Shown here in pieces: positions 15,549 through 61,104 of a stretch of 64,000 nucleotides of DNA. Both the position numbers and the translations under genes were made by a program. The DNA is from Woeseiaceae bacterium (GTDB taxonomy: Bacteria > Pseudomonadota > Gammaproteobacteria > Steroidobacterales > Woeseiaceae): positions 4,446 to 68,445 of the forward strand of contig DATGQI010000036.1 in the NCBI GenBank assembly GCA_035304285.1, given 5' to 3'. Position 1 is the stretch's first letter, and every line of letters starts with the position of its first letter. The notes beneath the pieces were generated by a model. That model was not told where the DNA came from, searched no databases, and was given only the letters and a program-made list of their open reading frames with translations.

Positions 15549-15727
15549 GTTACAGCTCCTTTTTGTTGACGCACCACCGGGCGCCCGCATTTCGAACGCT
15601 CCGGAAGGAGCGCGCATTCTAGTCGATGTTCGTAGCGCATCCCCGATCGCGCGATTTGACAATTTCCCGTGCAATCAGGTTCCTGGCAATTGACACTGGC
15701 GAATGCCCTGTGCAACGATCCTTCCTC

Positions 15728-15812
15728 GTTTGATAAAGGCACACCTTTCGAAAGGAAGGGCCGCAAAGCCACCGGTCTAAGGGAATATCCTATGACAGCG
15801 GGGTTGCCGACA
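15728..15812 (+). promoter_or_regulatory. c-di-GMP-I (GEMM-I) riboswitch aptamer, copy 1
   Basis: AAAGGCACACCUUUCGAAAGGAAGGGCCGCAAAGCCACCGGUCUAAGG...GACAGCGGGGUUGCC matches the GEMM-I core as in Vc2: GGCAAACC..UCGAAAG..GGACGCAAAGCC.CCGG.CUAA...UAGCGGGGUUACC. Includes a GAAA tetraloop hairpin (CCUUUC/GGAAGG). Confidence 0.85.
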
Positions 15813-15979
15813 CGACAGCTACTACGCGACGAGCATTCCGAAGCCCGTTCGCAGGCAACCCGCCCTCATAGATGCAGCGGACCAGACTGAGAGTCTGCCG
15901 CCAATTCCCGCCCGGAAACCGCGCGGTGTCCTTATTCGGACACGGCATTCGACCGTGTCGGTGCGGACGGGAGAGCAGC

Positions 15980-17347
15980 ATGTCAGTCAAAGCCATAAGA
16001 CTTCGCGATACCGGGAAAATCGGCCGGCGAACCCAGCCCAGGCCATGCACCATCCGCCCGACCAGCTTAAAGCAACTGAGACAGTGTCTCGAGCGAGGCT
16101 CAGCATACCTGGCGCCGTTTCGTCCGATGGGTGCCAATAGCTCGTCCACGGATTGCACGTCCGCGACGGCGGGCACGGTCATCGATATGACCGGATTTGA
16201 CGAAATCATCAACATAGATGCCTACAACGATACCGCTGTCGTCCAGGCAGGCGTTCGCCTGGGGAGGCTGGCGAGCGCCCTTGCAGAGCACGGCCTCGAG
16301 CTTGCGGGAAGCCATGACCTCATGAGCCGAACCGTCGGCGGGGCGGTGGCCGGCGGCTGCATCGGCCCCTCGATCTCCAGCGACGGCGCCTACTTCGCCT
16401 CGCAAGTGCTGAGCATGAAGCTCGTTACCCCTTCCGGGCGCCTGCTGGCGCTCTCCCGCGAGAAGCAGAACCTGCTGAATGCGTTCCGACTCAGTTACGG
16501 AATGCTCGGGGTAATCTACGAGGTGACGCTGAAAGTGCGGCCGATCAGCCCGTTTGCAGTGTCGCACCGGCGCTGTTCGATTGCCCAATTCGCCGCCGCG
16601 GCGGAAAAACTGTCCCGGACCGACATCGGCATCAAGTTCTACCTCCTGCCGTTTCGCGATTGCGCGTACCTCGACCTGCGGCGGTACAGCCGCGAAGCCA
16701 CCTCCACGCATAAGATCCCGTGGAAGCTGAAGGACTGGGGGGAAAGTACAGTGCTGCCGCAGGTCTTCAAATCGTTGAACCGCATCGTCCCGGTAGCGGG
16801 CGTGCGTTACCGCATCATTGACGAGATCAGCAAGGTCACGCAGAACATCGTCAACAACAGGCTCGTGACGTCCGGCAGCAACTCCACTGCGCTCGCGAGC
16901 GGAGATCACGCGAAGCACCATGGTGAACGGCTCAGGTATTCCACCTGGATGTTCCCCGCGGCTGATTTTTCGATCGTCGTCCAGGCGTACAAGGATTTTT
17001 GCCTGCGCATCAGGAACGAAACCGGATTCCGCTGCGATATGCCGACTGTCGGGTTCAGGTTGTGCCGCGACCAGTCGGCCTTGCTTTCACCATCCTTCGA
17101 TGAACCGATGTTCGTATTGCGCGCCGTGTCTACGCAGGCGCGTGGTTGGGAAGACTTTGCCATCGATTTCGGTGAGTTCGCCCAGCACTGGGGAGGGATG
17201 CCGTTCTTCAACCAGACACGCGGGCTGTCGCCTGGGTACGCAGGACAGGTGTTCGGCAGCAGGCTCGACTTCTTCAAGCGGATGCGACGGCGCATCGATC
17301 CCGAAGACAGGATGATGAACCCGTTCTTGCTGCAGTATTTTCTCTGA
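15980..17347 (+). CDS. FAD-binding (PCMH-type) oxidoreductase, ALO/DprE1-like
   Basis: Start at the internal Met, preceded by GGGAGAG. Has an FAD_binding_4-like segment (...VVQAGVRLGRLASALAEHGLELAGSHDLMSRTVGGAVAGG...) and a C-terminal oxidase-type domain ending ...RIDPEDRMMNPFLLQYFL. It is the only gene downstream of riboswitch 1. Confidence 0.75.
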   Translation: MSVKAIRLRDTGKIGRRTQPRPCTIRPTSLKQLRQCLERGSAYLAPFRPMGANSSSTDCTSATAGTVIDMTGFDEIINIDAYNDTAVVQAGVRLGRLASALAEHGLELAGSHDLMSRTVGGAVAGGCIGPSISSDGAYFASQVLSMKLVTPSGRLLALSREKQNLLNAFRLSYGMLGVIYEVTLKVRPISPFAVSHRRCSIAQFAAAAEKLSRTDIGIKFYLLPFRDCAYLDLRRYSREATSTHKIPWKLKDWGESTVLPQVFKSLNRIVPVAGVRYRIIDEISKVTQNIVNNRLVTSGSNSTALASGDHAKHHGERLRYSTWMFPAADFSIVVQAYKDFCLRIRNETGFRCDMPTVGFRLCRDQSALLSPSFDEPMFVLRAVSTQARGWEDFAIDFGEFAQHWGGMPFFNQTRGLSPGYAGQVFGSRLDFFKRMRRRIDPEDRMMNPFLLQYFL

Positions 17348-54234: not shown

Positions 54235-56457
54235 TCAGGAGGTATTGCGTTTCCGCTGGCTTTTCCGCTTCTGCTTCTGGTGCGACTCGATCGGCACAGG
54301 CATCGTCTTGCGGATCGGCGTAGCAGTCGGCCGTCCGATGTGGAAGCCCTGCGCAAAATCGATACCCAGACGCCCGAGCAGTGTGAAGGCCGCGCCTGGC
54401 TGTACGTATTCGGCGATGGTTTTCATGCCGGCGGCCCTGCCGATTTCACCGATCATCTTCACCATTTTCTGGTCCACCGGGTTGCGTACCAGGTCCCTGA
54501 TGAAGCTGCCGTCTATCTTGATGTAGTCCACCGGCAGTTTTTGCAGGTAACTGAAGGAACTGTATCCGGTACCGAAGTCGTCTAGGGAGACCTGGCAGCC
54601 GATCTCACGCAACCCTGCTATCTGCTTCTCAACGTGGTTCAGGTGCCGCATCGCGAGACTCTCGGTAATCTCGAAGGTCACACAGTCCGCAGGAACGCCC
54701 TGTCGCGCCAGCTGCGACATGACGAATGCGGTGAGGTTCTCCGCTTCGAACGCGTTGGCGGAAAGATTCAGCGCGAAGCGAAGGTCCGGCGCGTCCTGCC
54801 GGTATCTTGCAAGCTCGGCTATCGCCGTTTCGATGAGCCATGTGTCTATTTCCGCCATCAGCCCGAAACGGACCGCAGCCGGGAGGAATGCGTCAGGCGA
54901 AACCAGGTCACCGTTGTCGGCCTTCATCCGTAACAGTACCTCGTGGTGCGTTGTTTCACCCGTGGCTATGCATACGATGGGCTGGTAGCGCAGCATGAGG
55001 AGGTTATTGTCGATGGCCTCTCTCAGCTTGCTGATCCAGTTGACGTCAGCCGCCATCTGCTCAACGTCCCGTTCGGACATGCTGTGGAAGGCAAGCCGGT
55101 TCCGTCCCGAGGCTTTCGCCTCCCGACAGGCAATATCCGCCTGTGATATCAGATCGTCATGATCGAAGCGGTCGGAATCGATCATCGTGATACCGATGCT
55201 GCAATGCACATGGAAGATGTTGTCGTCCTCGACGTGCGCAACCTTGCGCAGGTCTTCCAGGATCGACTCCGCTAGCGCCTGTGCCGCCGGTTTCGAAACG
55301 CCGGTAGCAAGCACCGTAAACTCATCTCCCCCGAACCTGCCGACCGTTCCGATGTCGCCGACGCAGCTCTGTAGCTGGTCCGCGACCTTCCTGATCAGCC
55401 GGTCGCCCGCGGGATGACCACAGGTGTCATTGACGTACTTGAACTGGTCGAGGTCGATGAACAGCAGCGCGGCCCTGGTGCTCTCGCGCGCGACATTCCG
55501 TACTTCCCTGCGCAACTCTTCAACGAACCGGCGCCGGTTGAAGAGACCCGTCAGAACGTCATGGTTCGCCAGCCGGGAAAGCTTTTCGTTGCGTTCGCCA
55601 AGCGCCGAGGCTGTCGATGCAAGGGCCTCCACAATATCGGATATTTCCCGGTGCTTGGCGGGCTTGAACTCTACCGACAGGTTGCCTTTCGCCAGTTCGG
55701 CGATTGGCCTTTGCAGATCGGCAATGGGCGTCAGCGCGCTCAGCAGGCGCCGACGTCCGATCAGGCCGGACACGATCAACAGCAGCAGCAGCACACTGGT
55801 TGCGACCTTGATATTTGTCAAAAGCCTTGCGTGGAAGAAACCAAAGTCCAACTCGAGGCGGACGAAGCCGGCGAGACTCCTGGTACTCGGCACGTCACCC
55901 GCGGTCGGATCGAATCCGAAAAGGCCTTCGCCGCCGATAGATTCAGTCCAGATCGGGGCGAGAATCTCGAACGTGTGGGCGCTGAAGACGTTGCTGTTCA
56001 CGAGGTAAGGTTCGTTCGCACCGACCAGGTCGGATAAGCGAGCGAGCAAGGCATAAGAGACCGGCTCAGCCGGTACGCTGTGGTAAAGGCCGCTATCGAT
56101 GGAGTAGAACGGGCTGCCGTCTTCGTAGTAATAGGTGACCCTGTCAATCTCCGGATAACGTCCCACGAAGCTCTCCAGGCGCGGAATCACCTCGGCGTCG
56201 CGCTGCAGGTAAAGGGGCGCCCCGAGTTCGTTCAACTCGCCGGTCCACTGCAGCGCCCAGCGGCCGTAGTTATCCTGCAGCACCCACTGCCCGCCCCAGT
56301 AGAGGCCGCCGATTGCGAGGGCGCCGACTACCGCTGTGATCATGAGCTGAAGGGACAGGATCTCGTTGATCAGCAGGCGCTTGCCGCGGCGGTTTGACTT
56401 CCGTCGCGCCGCCAGCCTTGCGCGGTTTTGCTCCGGAAGTGGGGCGGTCGCAGTCAT
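54235..56457 (-). CDS. membrane-bound GGDEF-EAL protein (diguanylate cyclase/phosphodiesterase) with periplasmic and HAMP-like regions
   Basis: 740 aa with two TM helices. GGDEF motif RFGGDEFTVLA. EAL domain (EVLLRM, DDFGTGYSSFSYL). ATGA overlap with the upstream lipoprotein gene. Confidence 0.9.
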   Translation of the reverse strand: MTATAPLPEQNRARLAARRKSNRRGKRLLINEILSLQLMITAVVGALAIGGLYWGGQWVLQDNYGRWALQWTGELNELGAPLYLQRDAEVIPRLESFVGRYPEIDRVTYYYEDGSPFYSIDSGLYHSVPAEPVSYALLARLSDLVGANEPYLVNSNVFSAHTFEILAPIWTESIGGEGLFGFDPTAGDVPSTRSLAGFVRLELDFGFFHARLLTNIKVATSVLLLLLIVSGLIGRRRLLSALTPIADLQRPIAELAKGNLSVEFKPAKHREISDIVEALASTASALGERNEKLSRLANHDVLTGLFNRRRFVEELRREVRNVARESTRAALLFIDLDQFKYVNDTCGHPAGDRLIRKVADQLQSCVGDIGTVGRFGGDEFTVLATGVSKPAAQALAESILEDLRKVAHVEDDNIFHVHCSIGITMIDSDRFDHDDLISQADIACREAKASGRNRLAFHSMSERDVEQMAADVNWISKLREAIDNNLLMLRYQPIVCIATGETTHHEVLLRMKADNGDLVSPDAFLPAAVRFGLMAEIDTWLIETAIAELARYRQDAPDLRFALNLSANAFEAENLTAFVMSQLARQGVPADCVTFEITESLAMRHLNHVEKQIAGLREIGCQVSLDDFGTGYSSFSYLQKLPVDYIKIDGSFIRDLVRNPVDQKMVKMIGEIGRAAGMKTIAEYVQPGAAFTLLGRLGIDFAQGFHIGRPTATPIRKTMPVPIESHQKQKRKSQRKRNTS

Positions 56458-57554: not shown

Positions 57555-57767
57555 CGCGACAAGCAGCTGCGCCCTTCGGCCGATTGAAGAACTTACCCAA
57601 GTGCTTGCTTCAGGGTCCGGGTATGTGTCTCAGATTAACCCTCGCGAGACGGATTGAGCGGATCACGCCGATATTATGTACAACCAGGAGCCGTTCGACG
57701 TGCTGCCGCAGATGGGCGACACCTTTTGTTGTTGACAGGTTGAATTGCGCTATGAAACGCTAGCAGG

Positions 57768-57852
57768 CGCTTGATAAAGGCACACCTTCCGAAAGGAAGC
57801 GTCGCAAAGCCACCGGTCTACGGTTTTTAACTACGACAGCGGGGTTACCAGC
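57768..57852 (+). promoter_or_regulatory. c-di-GMP-I (GEMM-I) riboswitch aptamer, copy 2
   Basis: AAAGGCACACCUUCCGAAAGGAAGCGUCGCAAAGCCACCGGUCUACGG...GACAGCGGGGUUACC. 47 of the first 50 core nt are identical to copy 1. The 3' strand ends 3 nt before the ATG at 57853. Confidence 0.85.
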
Positions 57853-59280
57853 ATGACCTTTTTATTGAACATCACCCCATGGCCTTTACTGTCGGCACTT
57901 CTGTGGATAGTGCTCGTCGTGACATCGCTATATTTCGCGCGGCCGACTGCGCACAAGGCGATTCGTGCGGCGGCCCTGGCGCTGCATCGCACGTTGAGGC
58001 TCGCCTCTATGGGCGTAAGGAAGGCGGAAGCGGGACTCGCACAACGCAATCGAGAGGTCTTGCTTGCTGCCGGGCGCGAAGCGAAGGAAAGAATCGTCGA
58101 GCGTGAGTTTGATCGTGTAAACGAAACCGTACGCAAGGATCTTGCAAACTACTCCACGCTGCATCGCGCGTTGAGCGAGTCGATCAATCGCATCGAGACG
58201 GATCACCAGGCGGCAGTCGACGTGCCGCCGGACCCACCGGGGTGGGTGAAAGCCGTCGAAGCTGTTGCGAAAATTGATTCCCGTGAAGGCAGGGTCGGCA
58301 TTGGAAACGTGCTGACTGACATACACCGCTCGCTGGTCAAGGCGCACCAGGAGGCAATGGTTGCGTATCGCGAGGCCAGTGCGGACCGTCATGCCTACCT
58401 CAGGAAGATGCGTCCCGAATGGCGCCAGATCCAGCAGACGCTGGGGCAGGTCGGCAAGAACGTCGACAGCCTGCTGAGCCGCTCCGTCACCATCGATCGC
58501 CACATGAAGGATTACGAGGACATCATCAGCGGCCACGACCGCTCTGTGTCCGTGCTGTCGTCCTCATCGCTGGTGTACTTCTTCGTGTCGGCACTCGTCC
58601 TCATGGTTGCCGCGGGCGGTGCGACGATCAACTTCTCCCTGATTGCCCGGCCCATGGCTGAAATGGTGGGAGGCACCAGCCTGATCGGAGGCTTCCGCAC
58701 CGCCGACATTGCGGCACTCGTGATCATCATGGTCGAGATTTCGATGGGACTGTTCCTGATGGAATCGCTTCGGATCACGCGGCTGTTTCCGGTCATCGGC
58801 GCGCTGCCAGACAAGGTCCGGGTGCGTATGATCTGGATCACTTTCACGATCCTGCTGATGCTGGCAACAGTCGAAGCGGGGCTGGCCTATATGCGCGAGG
58901 TGCTGCTGCACGACGAACTCGCGACCAGTGCGCTATTGCGCGGCGACGTGAGCGACGGCCTTACCGGCCAGTACCTCTGGATTACGACGGCCGCGCAGAT
59001 GGGCATGGGATTCATCCTGCCTTTCGCGCTGACGTTCGTCGCGATTCCCCTTGAGACCTTCGTCCATTCGCTGCGAACCGTGCTTGGCCTCGCCGGCATA
59101 GGCTTACTTCGGCTCACGGCGCTGCTGCTGCGTGTACTGGGGAACGCCTGCCGTTATCTCGGCTCGCTGGTCGAGCAACTGTATGACCTGCCGCTGTTCG
59201 TGCCACTGTGGCTCGAGTCGCGCTACGGCGATCTCGGATCGAAATCCAGGAGCGGCTCATTGCGGGAGGCGCGGACGTGA
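57853..59280 (+). CDS. uncharacterised polytopic membrane protein (riboswitch-controlled)
   Basis: 475 aa. N-terminal TM helix (PLLSALLWIVLVVTSLYF). About 200 aa of charged helical region. At least 5 C-terminal hydrophobic helices. I recognise no family. Confidence 0.7.
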   Translation: MTFLLNITPWPLLSALLWIVLVVTSLYFARPTAHKAIRAAALALHRTLRLASMGVRKAEAGLAQRNREVLLAAGREAKERIVEREFDRVNETVRKDLANYSTLHRALSESINRIETDHQAAVDVPPDPPGWVKAVEAVAKIDSREGRVGIGNVLTDIHRSLVKAHQEAMVAYREASADRHAYLRKMRPEWRQIQQTLGQVGKNVDSLLSRSVTIDRHMKDYEDIISGHDRSVSVLSSSSLVYFFVSALVLMVAAGGATINFSLIARPMAEMVGGTSLIGGFRTADIAALVIIMVEISMGLFLMESLRITRLFPVIGALPDKVRVRMIWITFTILLMLATVEAGLAYMREVLLHDELATSALLRGDVSDGLTGQYLWITTAAQMGMGFILPFALTFVAIPLETFVHSLRTVLGLAGIGLLRLTALLLRVLGNACRYLGSLVEQLYDLPLFVPLWLESRYGDLGSKSRSGSLREART

Positions 59281-59915
59281 GAAAACTTCTTGGCGCGCTG
59301 GCAGCCGTCGTGCTGCTCGGCTGCACCCAACCGACCCCGGGCAACACCGGCGTATACATGCTGCTCGACACATCCGGTACATATCGGGAAGAGCTGCAAA
59401 AGGCGGAACAAATCATCCGCTACACGCTGTCCAGGCTGGACGCGGCGGACACATTCGCCGTGGCTCGCATAGACACCGGCAGCTTCAGCGAGAAGGACAT
59501 CGTGGCCAAGACCTCCTTCGACGACCGCCCCAGCACGATCAACCGGCAAAAGCGCCTGTTCGCGGAGCAGATCAGTACATTCGTCAGCGATACCGAATCC
59601 TCGCCCTACACCGATATCACAGGCGGATTGTTGCAAGCGGTCGAGTTCCTGAATGAGAAAGGCTCGGGCAGGAAAGCGATCCTGATCTTCTCGGATCTGA
59701 AGGAAGACCTGCAGGACGGATACGTTCGTAACGATATTCCCTTCGACCTCGACGGCTTCGAAGTGATCGCATTGAACGTGACGAAGCTGCGCTCCGATAA
59801 CGTAGATCCGCGCGAGTACCTCTCGAGGCTCAGCACGTGGCAGGCGCGGGTGGAAAACTCGGGTGGCCGGTGGAGGGTGATCAATGATCTGGACGGCCTG
59901 GAGGGCCTGCTGTAG
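59277..59915 (+). CDS. lipoprotein with VWA-like domain (MIDAS-type DxSGT motif)
   Basis: GTG start overlaps the upstream stop (GTGA) and is preceded by GGGAGG. Lipobox AVVLLGC. VYMLLDTSGTY...YTDITGG...ILIFSDLKED follows the VWA beta-alpha pattern. Confidence 0.65.
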   Translation: MRKLLGALAAVVLLGCTQPTPGNTGVYMLLDTSGTYREELQKAEQIIRYTLSRLDAADTFAVARIDTGSFSEKDIVAKTSFDDRPSTINRQKRLFAEQISTFVSDTESSPYTDITGGLLQAVEFLNEKGSGRKAILIFSDLKEDLQDGYVRNDIPFDLDGFEVIALNVTKLRSDNVDPREYLSRLSTWQARVENSGGRWRVINDLDGLEGLL

Positions 59916-60030: not shown

Positions 60031-61104
60031 TCAGGCTCCCGGTTTCGTACCCGCAACGGTAACGCGGTCGCGCCCCTCGCGCTTGCTCTGGTAGAGAGCG
60101 GCATCGGCAAGTGCGACCAACTGCTCCGGCGATACGGAGTCGCCGCGATTGCGCATCGCAACGCCGATGCTGATGCTAGCCGGCACGGAACCACCTCGTG
60201 TACGTATGGGCAGCGAGCGCATACCCTCGCAGATGCGCTCGCCGAGGGCCCTGCAGCCTTTTTCGTCAATGTCTTGGACGATGACGAGGAATTCCTCTCC
60301 ACCCCAGCGGCAAACGATATCCTGCGGGCGCACCGAGGCGACGATTGAGCCGGCCACGCGGCGCAGCACCTGGTCGCCCACCTGGTGCCCGAACTGGTCG
60401 TTGACCTGCTTGAAGTTGTCGATGTCGGCGAGGCAGATGCCGAGGGAGTGGTTGTGCTTCTGTGCTTCCATCAGCGCCGAGCTCAGGAGATCGGTGGCGC
60501 CGCGTCGGTTCCAAAGCCGGGTCAGGGGATCAAACATAGCCTGCCGACGTGCTTCGCCGAGCTTGGTGACCATCGCCGACTGCGCGTTGCTCAACTCGAC
60601 AGAAAACAGCTCCCTTTGCGCCATGTCACCCAAATCGGTGAGCGTGGCGGCGAAATCGGGATCGGGTTTTCGCGGTTTCAGGTCCATGACGCAGAACGTG
60701 CCGATCGTTTTGCCTTCGGAATCCCGAATCGGGAAACCGGCGTAGAACCTGATTTTCGGAGCCTTGCAGACCACGGGACTGCTCATCATGTAGAGATCTT
60801 CAAGCGTGTCCGGAACCACCATTTGCCTGCCCTCGCGGATCACCTCCGCACAAAGGCTCTTACTCATCGGTAGCTCCGTGACCTGCCAGCCTGAAACGGA
60901 CTTGAACCACTGCCGGTCCCCGTGTACGACCGTGATTGCCGCGATGGGTACGTTCAGTGCGCGCCTCGCGAGCCGTGTGATGCGCTCAAAGCGTTCTTCC
61001 AGGGGAGTATAGAACGGATCCAGCGAATGCAGATTTGCGAGTTTCAGCGTTGCCGTACTCGCCACGGTACGGCTTAAAGCTGTCTCATCATCGAACCTGG
61101 ACAT
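60031..61104 (-). CDS. GAF-GGDEF diguanylate cyclase with I-site
   Basis: 357 aa. GAF-like N-terminus. RPQD (RxxD I-site) lies five residues before GGEEF. Confidence 0.9.
   Translation of the reverse strand: MSRFDDETALSRTVASTATLKLANLHSLDPFYTPLEERFERITRLARRALNVPIAAITVVHGDRQWFKSVSGWQVTELPMSKSLCAEVIREGRQMVVPDTLEDLYMMSSPVVCKAPKIRFYAGFPIRDSEGKTIGTFCVMDLKPRKPDPDFAATLTDLGDMAQRELFSVELSNAQSAMVTKLGEARRQAMFDPLTRLWNRRGATDLLSSALMEAQKHNHSLGICLADIDNFKQVNDQFGHQVGDQVLRRVAGSIVASVRPQDIVCRWGGEEFLVIVQDIDEKGCRALGERICEGMRSLPIRTRGGSVPASISIGVAMRNRGDSVSPEQLVALADAALYQSKREGRDRVTVAGTKPGA

Follow-up and report, generated by a model that had tools for sequence, protein, structure and literature searches.

How might a riboswitch control a gene when its aptamer runs right up to the start codon? 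The question is posed by a contig (DATGQI010000036.1) of a Woeseiaceae bacterium, a member of an abundant marine-sediment group, of which a stretch of 64,000 nucleotides (nt), here called the window, was analysed. A cyclic di-GMP (c-di-GMP) riboswitch aptamer of the c-di-GMP-I or GEMM-I class stands at positions 57769-57852 (copy 2), immediately before the ATG of a gene for an uncharacterised membrane protein of 475 amino acids (aa), and a second such aptamer lies at 15728-15811 (copy 1). A sequence-only reading of the window had inferred direct translational gating at copy 2. Our analysis points the same way: copy 2 is probably a c-di-GMP-I riboswitch without a separate expression platform, in which bound ligand would block the 30S subunit directly, making it a translational OFF switch.

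Aptamer, start codon and promoter

What is established at this locus is the identity of the aptamer, its geometry, its conservation and the covariation of its closing helix, P1. Copy 2 matches the Rfam model RF01051 over its complete length (model positions 1-87) at 72.1 bits (E 3.5e-12, cmscan), and copy 1 matches it at 82.5 bits (E 1e-14). The gathering score of the family is 35 bits, and these are the only two RF01051 loci found by cmscan in the 64-kb window. The covariance model is thus significant at both loci, as the assignment of the pair to GEMM-I from sequence alone had anticipated, and 57769-57852 is an aptamer of a known class for which c-di-GMP binding is predicted. Relatives were collected by scanning one genome per GTDB species, and the best 80 of 476, all Woeseiaceae, were kept (leaders L001 to L080). 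Across these 80 leaders, 92% of the cells of the aptamer core are paired and compensatory changes occur in 13 pairs, a level reached in none of 500 shuffles; all five helix pairs of P2 covary, and the P3 helix is 96% paired.

The ligand-contact positions of copy 2 are intact: G57779, A57806 and C57848 align with G20, A47 and C92 of the Vc2 aptamer of Vibrio cholerae, whose roles are known in part from the 2009 crystal structures. The Vc2 numbering and the roles of G14 and C92 follow PMC11705072. The parts of the aptamer are as follows.

57769-57773, forward strand: 5' strand of P1, with G57773 equivalent to Vc2 G14 (placed by covariation, in the register of the RF03167 P1 pairs)
57774-57779, forward strand: J1/2, AUAAAG, with G57779 equivalent to ligand contact G20 (aligned to the RF01051 consensus AAaG)
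57780-57805, forward strand: P2 hairpin with a GAAA tetraloop at 57791-57794 and a C57785·C57800 mismatch (cmscan alignment)
57806-57807, forward strand: J2/3, AA, with A57806 equivalent to the intercalating A47 (column invariant in the 80 leaders)
57808-57846, forward strand: P3 hairpin with a variant tetraloop receptor, CUACG...UACG (cmscan alignment)
57841-57845, forward strand: Shine-Dalgarno (SD)-like GGGGU in the 3' strand of lower P3 (best anti-SD duplex within -22 to -1)
57847-57849, forward strand: ACC, with C57848 equivalent to ligand contact C92 and C57849 to C93 in the top P1 pair (ACC in 75 of 80 leaders)
57850-57852, forward strand: AGC spacer, completing the P1 3' strand that begins at C57849 and ending at nt -1 (covariation at columns 118-120)

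The last letter of GCGGGGUUACC in copy 2 is at 57849; AGC follows at 57850-57852, and the ATG begins at 57853, in agreement with the earlier statement that only 3 nt separate the conserved 3' strand GGGGUUACC from the start codon. The arrangement is shared by the relatives. An aptamer is present at all 79 species-level orthologous loci that have enough upstream DNA, and the orthologous aptamers end in ...GCGG(G/A)GUUACC, followed by 2-4 nt, mostly 3, and then ATG. Of the 74 of 80 leaders matched by pattern, 64 have 3 nt between RCC and the start codon, nine have 4 nt and one has 2 nt. Even the 20 most divergent-looking orthologous loci each have a GEMM-I clan match in Rfam that ends between -1 and +2 relative to the ATG. 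The ATG at 57853 appears to be the true start, as had been assumed: it is invariant in the 80 leaders, and the N-terminus MxFLLxITPWP begins at the same methionine in 30 aligned orthologues. A few over-called open reading frames (ORFs) among the orthologues extend upstream and translate the aptamer itself (...RKATGLR..YDSGVTSM), the first sign that the ATG abuts the aptamer in those genomes too.

P1 is formed by the G14 equivalent and the 3 nt 5' of it, which pair with the second C of ACC and the 3-nt spacer (four columns). In the alignment of the 80 leaders, pairing in these columns reaches 79% (67% in shuffles) and covariation 0.234 (0.101 in shuffles), a value that none of 500 shuffles equals. 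At one P1 position AU, UG, UA, CG and GC pairs are all seen, and a G-C pair joins columns 23 and 117 in 73 of 77 distinct rows. The register, G14-C93, agrees with that of Vc2 determined by nuclear magnetic resonance (NMR; PMC11705072) and with the P1 pairs of RF03167. Because P1 covaries with the spacer nucleotides, the closing helix ends at nt -1, and the aptamer is more than merely near the start codon.

The putative ribosome-binding site (RBS) is part of the same structure. Between -22 and -1, the strongest pairing with the anti-SD (mean -6.2 kcal/mol) is that of GG(G/A)GU, whose 3' end stands 6-7 nt ahead of the AUG in all 80 leaders; this element lies in the 3' strand of lower P3, just before the ligand contact C92. 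The earlier claim that the only SD-like element near the start sits inside the aptamer is therefore borne out for the 22 nt before the start codon. GGAG replaces GGGG in 27 of the 80 leaders, and in 23 of these 27 it produces a C·A mismatch in P3, which is suggestive of an improved SD at the cost of the P3 helix. Four distant homologues of the membrane protein (33-58% identity) have AGGAGG, GGAGG or GAGG sites 6-9 nt before the start and no GEMM match upstream, so the association of aptamer and gene does not extend to them. Their ordinary SDs suggest that the gene family normally uses an SD, whose place is taken by the aptamer in this lineage.

A putative promoter accounts for the DNA upstream, with the following elements.

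57732-57737, forward strand: -35 hexamer TTGACA (direct reading)
57753-57761, forward strand: putative extended -10 element TG-A-AACGCT, with TG at 57753-57754 and the hexamer at 57756-57761 (comparison across species)
57766-57769, forward strand: predicted transcript start, at a distance of 5-8 nt from the 3' end of the -10 hexamer

The TTGACA hexamers already recognised upstream of both aptamers (15690-15695 and 57732-57737) are indeed present, though the accompanying statement that no convincing -10 element exists does not hold: TGnAACGnT lies 15 nt after TTGACA in both copies and is conserved in orthologues. Copy 2 reads TTGACA-N15-TGAAACGCT at 57732-57761 and copy 1 TTGACA-N15-TGCAACGAT at 15690-15719. 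Apart from these two matches, the composite TTGACA-N{14,16}-TGNAACGNT is absent from the 64 kb; its chance expectation is 0.00. In copy-2 orthologues TTGACA is followed after 15 nt by TGTGAAAcgCT, and orthologues of the copy-1 gene keep TGTGCAACGAT. The 48 of 80 leaders that could be scored by script include 33 with a perfect TTGACA at an 18-nt spacing, and in the scored leaders the last T of the -10 lies 88-93 nt before the ATG. TTGACA-N15-TGnAACGnT reads as a sigma-70-type promoter with an extended -10 (TGn), a NANNNT hexamer and an 18-nt spacing. A consensus promoter scanner calls nothing at either locus; this putative promoter was recovered only by cross-species comparison. On this reading transcription would begin near -84, where the P1 5' strand lies, and, if this start is right, the whole ~85-nt 5' untranslated region (UTR) is aptamer. 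Many unrelated metagenomic GEMM-I loci (L086, L149, L191 and others) have a -10-like CATATT, CATAGT or TAGTC about 10-12 nt before P1, and a transcript start at the 5' edge of the aptamer may be general among GEMM-I riboswitches.

Proposed direct occlusion and its rivals

The start of the transcript, the marginal stability of the unliganded state and the direction of regulation are what we infer from these observations. In the mechanism that we propose, a sigma-70-type promoter would start the mRNA at the P1 5' strand, giving a ~85-nt leader that is the aptamer alone. The RBS would be built into the ligand-dependent part of the fold, the SD being the 3' strand of lower P3, followed by C92 and the top P1 pair and then by the P1 3' strand. 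Without c-di-GMP, P1 and lower P3 would be marginally stable, allowing the 30S to open both, pair with the SD and translate the membrane protein together with the coupled lipoprotein gene that follows it. c-di-GMP bound at the three-helix junction would staple together P1, C92 and lower P3 in a fold incompatible with SD-anti-SD pairing and with the threading of nt -13 to -1 into the 30S. High c-di-GMP would then switch translation of both genes OFF by direct occlusion.

The structural hallmarks of direct occlusion are predicted here: the SD lies in lower P3 beside C92, and the aptamer ends at nt -1. Since the nucleotides that pair with the anti-SD also build the ligand pocket, the OFF direction follows from the geometry, provided that initiation needs the region single-stranded. 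By nearest-neighbour energies P1 contributes +0.3 +/- 2.5 kcal/mol, and the share of lower P3 is -4.3 kcal/mol where the leader has GGGG and -0.6 kcal/mol where it has GGAG, which suggests that the RBS-bearing module is weak without ligand. NMR of Vc2 has likewise found its P1 helix and pocket to be completed only upon ligand binding (PMC11705072). No terminator was called by the scanner at copy 1 or copy 2, and RNAalifold on the 80 leaders gives only the aptamer core, with no conserved alternative or leader-coding fold.

Several results weigh against direct occlusion. Plain secondary-structure prediction gives the SD a mean unpaired probability of ~0.2 without ligand (~80% paired), so translation in the unliganded state may be weak. 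The P1 column model fails in ~20% of cells, and the window's own P1 is weak, with 4 bp and a bulged U, or 3 bp. A g-to-c change at 57800 in copy 2 leaves a C·C mismatch at the outer pair of the GAAA-capped P2 hairpin. The GGAG leaders, moreover, were rejected as proof of selection for SD strength, since GEMM-I aptamers without an abutting start codon have the same C·A mismatch. Finally, when the window leader is folded with 35 coding nt, the minimum free energy (MFE) structure is an alternative fold at -30 kcal/mol, against -16.5 kcal/mol for the aptamer fold, though this alternative is not conserved. It pairs UAAAGGC (57775-57781) with GCCUUUA (57884-57890, codons 11-13) and GGGGU (57841-57845) with ACCCC (57875-57879, codons 8-9), and was rejected as a conserved mechanism because it depends on codons that are not conserved among orthologues.

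The strongest rival, which we nevertheless regard as unlikely, is that the ligand mainly controls the fate of the mRNA: closure of P1 would bury the 5' end and alter decay, or blocked translation would lead to Rho-dependent termination. The predicted transcript start at the P1 5' strand fits this idea, as ligand binding would base-pair the 5' terminus, and the Vc2 aptamer has been reported to control RNA stability (bioRxiv 10.1101/617340). It would also suit orthologues from a soil clade that keep the abutting ATG with the real start 150-300 nt further on, an arrangement needing polarity or coupling. Control of mRNA fate is compatible with occlusion, but explains neither the fixed spacing of 2-4 nt nor an SD at the optimal distance of 6-7 nt from the AUG, and no rut-like or RNase site was identified.

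It is distinctly improbable that copy 2 is an ON switch in which the unliganded leader misfolds with the coding region, hiding the RBS, and c-di-GMP restores a fold competent for initiation. The MFE fold just described does hide both GGGGU and UAAAGGC in coding pairing; when 45 coding nt are included, prediction pairs the SD with coding sequence in 26 of the 80 leaders, and the riboswitch Vc1 is an ON switch. In the bound fold, however, the SD and nt -4 to -1 are helical strands of the pocket, so that binding cannot expose them. Conserved leader-coding pairing was not found by RNAalifold, and the complementary codons vary, threonine being ACA, ACG or ACT in most orthologues and valine replacing leucine after WP.

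Still less probable is that copy 2 is, in this genome, a decaying relic whose gene is expressed constitutively. The C57785·C57800 mismatch and the energetic cost of the column-based P1, which takes the window sequence from -16.3 to -14.1 kcal/mol, could be read in this way. The outer P2 pair is, on the other hand, G-C in the closest relative (L001) and C-G in copy 1 and L008, such that the mismatch resembles an intermediate between these states, and the same C·C mismatch recurs in L010. At 72 bits the score is still roughly double the gathering threshold, no ligand contact is lost, and a nonfunctional aptamer would leave the SD buried in P3. Last, a mis-assigned start codon, with translation beginning downstream from its own RBS and the abutment coincidental, is hardly credible: many orthologues do have a second ATG at codon 4, but that codon varies among L, M, I and F while the first ATG does not vary, residues are conserved from codon 3 onward, codon 4 has no preceding SD, and distant homologues begin at the equivalent place.

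Known riboswitches and the paralogous copy

Vc2, upstream of tfoY in V. cholerae, has the same RF01051 class, the G20, A47 and C92 contacts and a GAAA tetraloop with its receptor, and is reported to repress translation when c-di-GMP is bound. Its aptamer, by contrast, ends ~102-110 nt before the start codon, and its RBS is masked by a separate downstream anti-RBS element. Copy 2 has no such element; P3 and P1 themselves contain its predicted RBS, and nt -1 is the last of the aptamer. The riboswitches known to act by direct occlusion (SAM-II/V, SAM-III, SAM-SAH and some preQ1-I and preQ1-II) resemble copy 2 in having the RBS in or beside the pocket and no strand-exchange platform (PMC10907184). 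They are small H-type pseudoknots or similar, whereas copy 2 is a ~85-nt three-helix-junction aptamer, and c-di-GMP-I is not listed under direct occlusion in that 2024 review of expression platforms (PMC10907184). Terminator-type GEMM-I riboswitches (Cd1, Bc1) share the aptamer and the use of the 3' strand of the second hairpin as the contested element; they compete with an intrinsic terminator, whereas copy 2 lacks a terminator and would contest that strand with the ribosome itself. Of the 322 instances in the original GEMM description, 78 have a terminator that overlaps the second hairpin; SD overlap is not mentioned there for GEMM. A full-text literature search returned no description of a GEMM-I aptamer abutting a start codon; key papers of 2008-2009 lay outside its coverage, so an earlier mention is possible.

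The riboswitch class is thus known, and what would be new is a platform-less architecture with the RBS inside the aptamer. This abutting architecture is strongly conserved and recurs elsewhere, and is unlikely to astonish a specialist. If the proposed mechanism is true, it would add a minimal design to those known: a 5' UTR consisting of nothing but the aptamer, with the RBS contributing to the wall of the ligand pocket. Vc2 binds c-di-GMP very tightly and releases it slowly. A ligand of that kind would here compete with the ribosome for the same nucleotides, offering a natural system in which to study kinetic versus thermodynamic control of translation, as well as a compact c-di-GMP-responsive part, from promoter to ATG, for reporters. 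A widespread operon of a membrane protein and a lipoprotein would, in addition, be an output of c-di-GMP signalling in Woeseiaceae.

Copy 1 is laid out differently.

15690-15811, forward strand: promoter motif (15690-15719) and c-di-GMP-I aptamer (15728-15811) (cmscan, motif search)
15854-15871, forward strand: predicted expression platform of copy 1, complementary to 15790-15808, the P3 3' strand of aptamer 1 (centroid fold of the copy-1 leader)

The two copies had been described as diverged paralogues, and most of that description stands. They share 47 of 50 nt (15730-15779 against 57771-57820), the three differences being t/c, g/c and c/t; the 14-nt distal segments that follow differ (agggaatatcctat in copy 1, cggtttttaactac in copy 2) and give way to a common 3' strand, gacagcggggtt. 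Direct reading also confirms that a U·G pair of copy 1 becomes C-G in copy 2 within the GAAA hairpin. The leader of copy 1, given earlier as 165 nt, is in fact ~168-171 nt, counted from 15808 or 15811 to the ATG at 15980. Over 82 aligned positions the aptamers are 84% identical, compared with 71-77% for 75 other metagenomic GEMM-I aptamers with the same 18-mer. The nearest relatives of the copy-1 aptamer are that of its own orthologue L113 (aptamer 90%, gene 86%) and those of the soil-clade membrane-protein genes (89%).

Both copies have the promoter motif TTGACA-N15-TGnAACGnT and a lineage-specific P2 stem sequence. This common, lineage-specific promoter-aptamer module bears out the paralogy and supports an origin of the two copies by duplication of the module. 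Since orthologues of each copy are found in other species, the duplication would be old, not recent. They differ in what follows. Copy 1 has a ~170-nt leader upstream of an FAD-linked oxidase gene, and this leader carries GGCAACCCGCCCUCAUAG, nearly perfectly complementary to the aptamer-1 P3 3' strand CUAUGACAGCGGGGUUGCC. The centroid fold pairs the two, which suggests an anti-aptamer helix and hence a strand-exchange platform; nothing comparable is present in the copy-2 leader. Copy 1 also has the canonical 11-nt receptor and GCC where copy 2 has ACC.

Aptamer variation, recurrence and the downstream operon

The receptor nucleotides fall inside the 14-nt distal segment, as the canonical CUAAG...UAUG in copy 1 and as CUACG...UACG in copy 2. 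CUACG...UA(C/G/A)G replaces the canonical sequence in copy 2 and in 46 of the 80 orthologues, and is plausibly a receptor variant with an A-C platform. Other orthologues have GYRA loops and no receptor, a combination described for GEMM type 2 in the original GEMM description. By alignment columns 53-58 and 81-106 of L001-L080, a GAAA loop in P2 goes with a receptor-like CUACG...UAnG in ~46 species, and in ~20 the loop is GYRA (GUGA or GCGA) and P3 is short and without a receptor. As both forms occur within one orthologous riboswitch, the two classic GEMM types appear to interconvert inside a single bacterial family.

Two variant classes were considered for copy 2 and rejected. The c-di-GMP-I-GGC variant (RF03167) is defined by G at position 47 (consensus ACGCGAAG), and position 47 is A here and invariant in the 80 leaders. 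Several orthologues do score best against RF03167, which is attributable to their short P3 and to the P1 pairs modelled in RF03167 and not to altered specificity. GEMM-Ib, the 3'3'-cGAMP riboswitch, has A at position 20, whereas G57779 is G, as is the equivalent position in all aligned leaders except L009. That leader (L009:2919-3000) reads ACAAAAGCAC, with A at the G20 position, the change that defines GEMM-Ib; this could be a specificity switch or an assembly error. In L070:2908-3000 an insertion of ~12 nt in the P2 hairpin replaces the GNRA tetraloop, and the RF01051 score is still 44 bits. L039 contains a further GEMM-I clan match (411-494, 67.6 bits) ~2.5 kb upstream of the orthologous riboswitch, an indication that these genomes carry several such aptamers close together.

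The abutting design is also found at other genes. Metagenomes were scanned for CGCAAAGCCACCGGTCTA, yielding 118 aptamers with an identifiable 3' end. The first long ORF starts 1-4 nt after RCC in 19 of these (11 at 3 nt and six at 4 nt), while 25-nt bins further downstream hold 13-17 aptamers each. Among the metagenomic matches, RCC, 1-4 nt and a start codon precede at least five gene families: the abutting matches comprise orthologues of the 475-aa gene, members of the FAD-oxidase family (L100, L102, L107), a lipoprotein (L136) and further unrelated ORFs. Leaders of the FAD-linked oxidase family come in three lengths, 3 nt (L100, L102, L107), ~70 nt (L090, L115, L144) and ~170 nt (15728-15980 of the window, L113), so one gene family has three platform formats.

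Soil-clade orthologues of the membrane protein have the abutting form in L173 and L127. In a derived form (L123, L181, L091, L196), GCCAGCAUGGA is retained, with GCCAG(C/G)AUGGA... after the aptamer, and the membrane protein really begins 150-300 nt further downstream. In these leaders the abutting ATG opens a short, non-conserved ORF, which in L181 stops 9 nt before the real start, and may be a relic start codon or a regulatory upstream ORF. A broader proposal, which we put forward tentatively and hold to be somewhat short of an even chance, is that a portable promoter-aptamer cassette of ~120 nt, in which the P3 and P1 3' strands serve as the RBS, is in use in Woeseiaceae and in related Gammaproteobacteria of sediment and soil, and that its duplicates have been joined directly to the start codons of several unrelated genes. 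It would constitute a platform-less, direct-occlusion subclass of GEMM-I.

Two genes follow copy 2.

57853-59280, forward strand: putatively regulated gene, encoding the 475-aa uncharacterised helical membrane protein (ORF list)
59277-59915, forward strand: second gene, a probable lipoprotein (weak VWA_2 match, E 0.003)

The 475-aa protein has no match in Pfam or NCBIfam. Its closest relatives, of 472-475 aa and 78-92% identity, are from Woeseia and Woeseiaceae metagenome-assembled genomes, and its family numbers 749 representative clusters. The AlphaFold2 model (mean predicted local distance difference test score, pLDDT, 89.9) consists of helices throughout, among them a long coiled-coil hairpin and a membrane bundle at the C-terminus; a fold search of the Protein Data Bank (PDB) with this model gave no significant match, nothing being better than E 0.057 or a template modelling (TM) score of 0.26. 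The GTG start of the second gene overlaps the upstream TGA (GTGA), which suggests that the two genes form one operon. A gene of ~215 aa follows the 475-aa homologue even at 42-58% identity (L081-L084; L085, which ends ~60 nt past the gene, cannot be judged), and the pair looks like a conserved two-gene module. The operon is flanked by a HAMP-GGDEF-EAL gene (54235-56457, reverse strand) and a GAF-GGDEF diguanylate cyclase gene (60031-61104, reverse strand), so that genes of c-di-GMP turnover adjoin the mRNA predicted to sense it.

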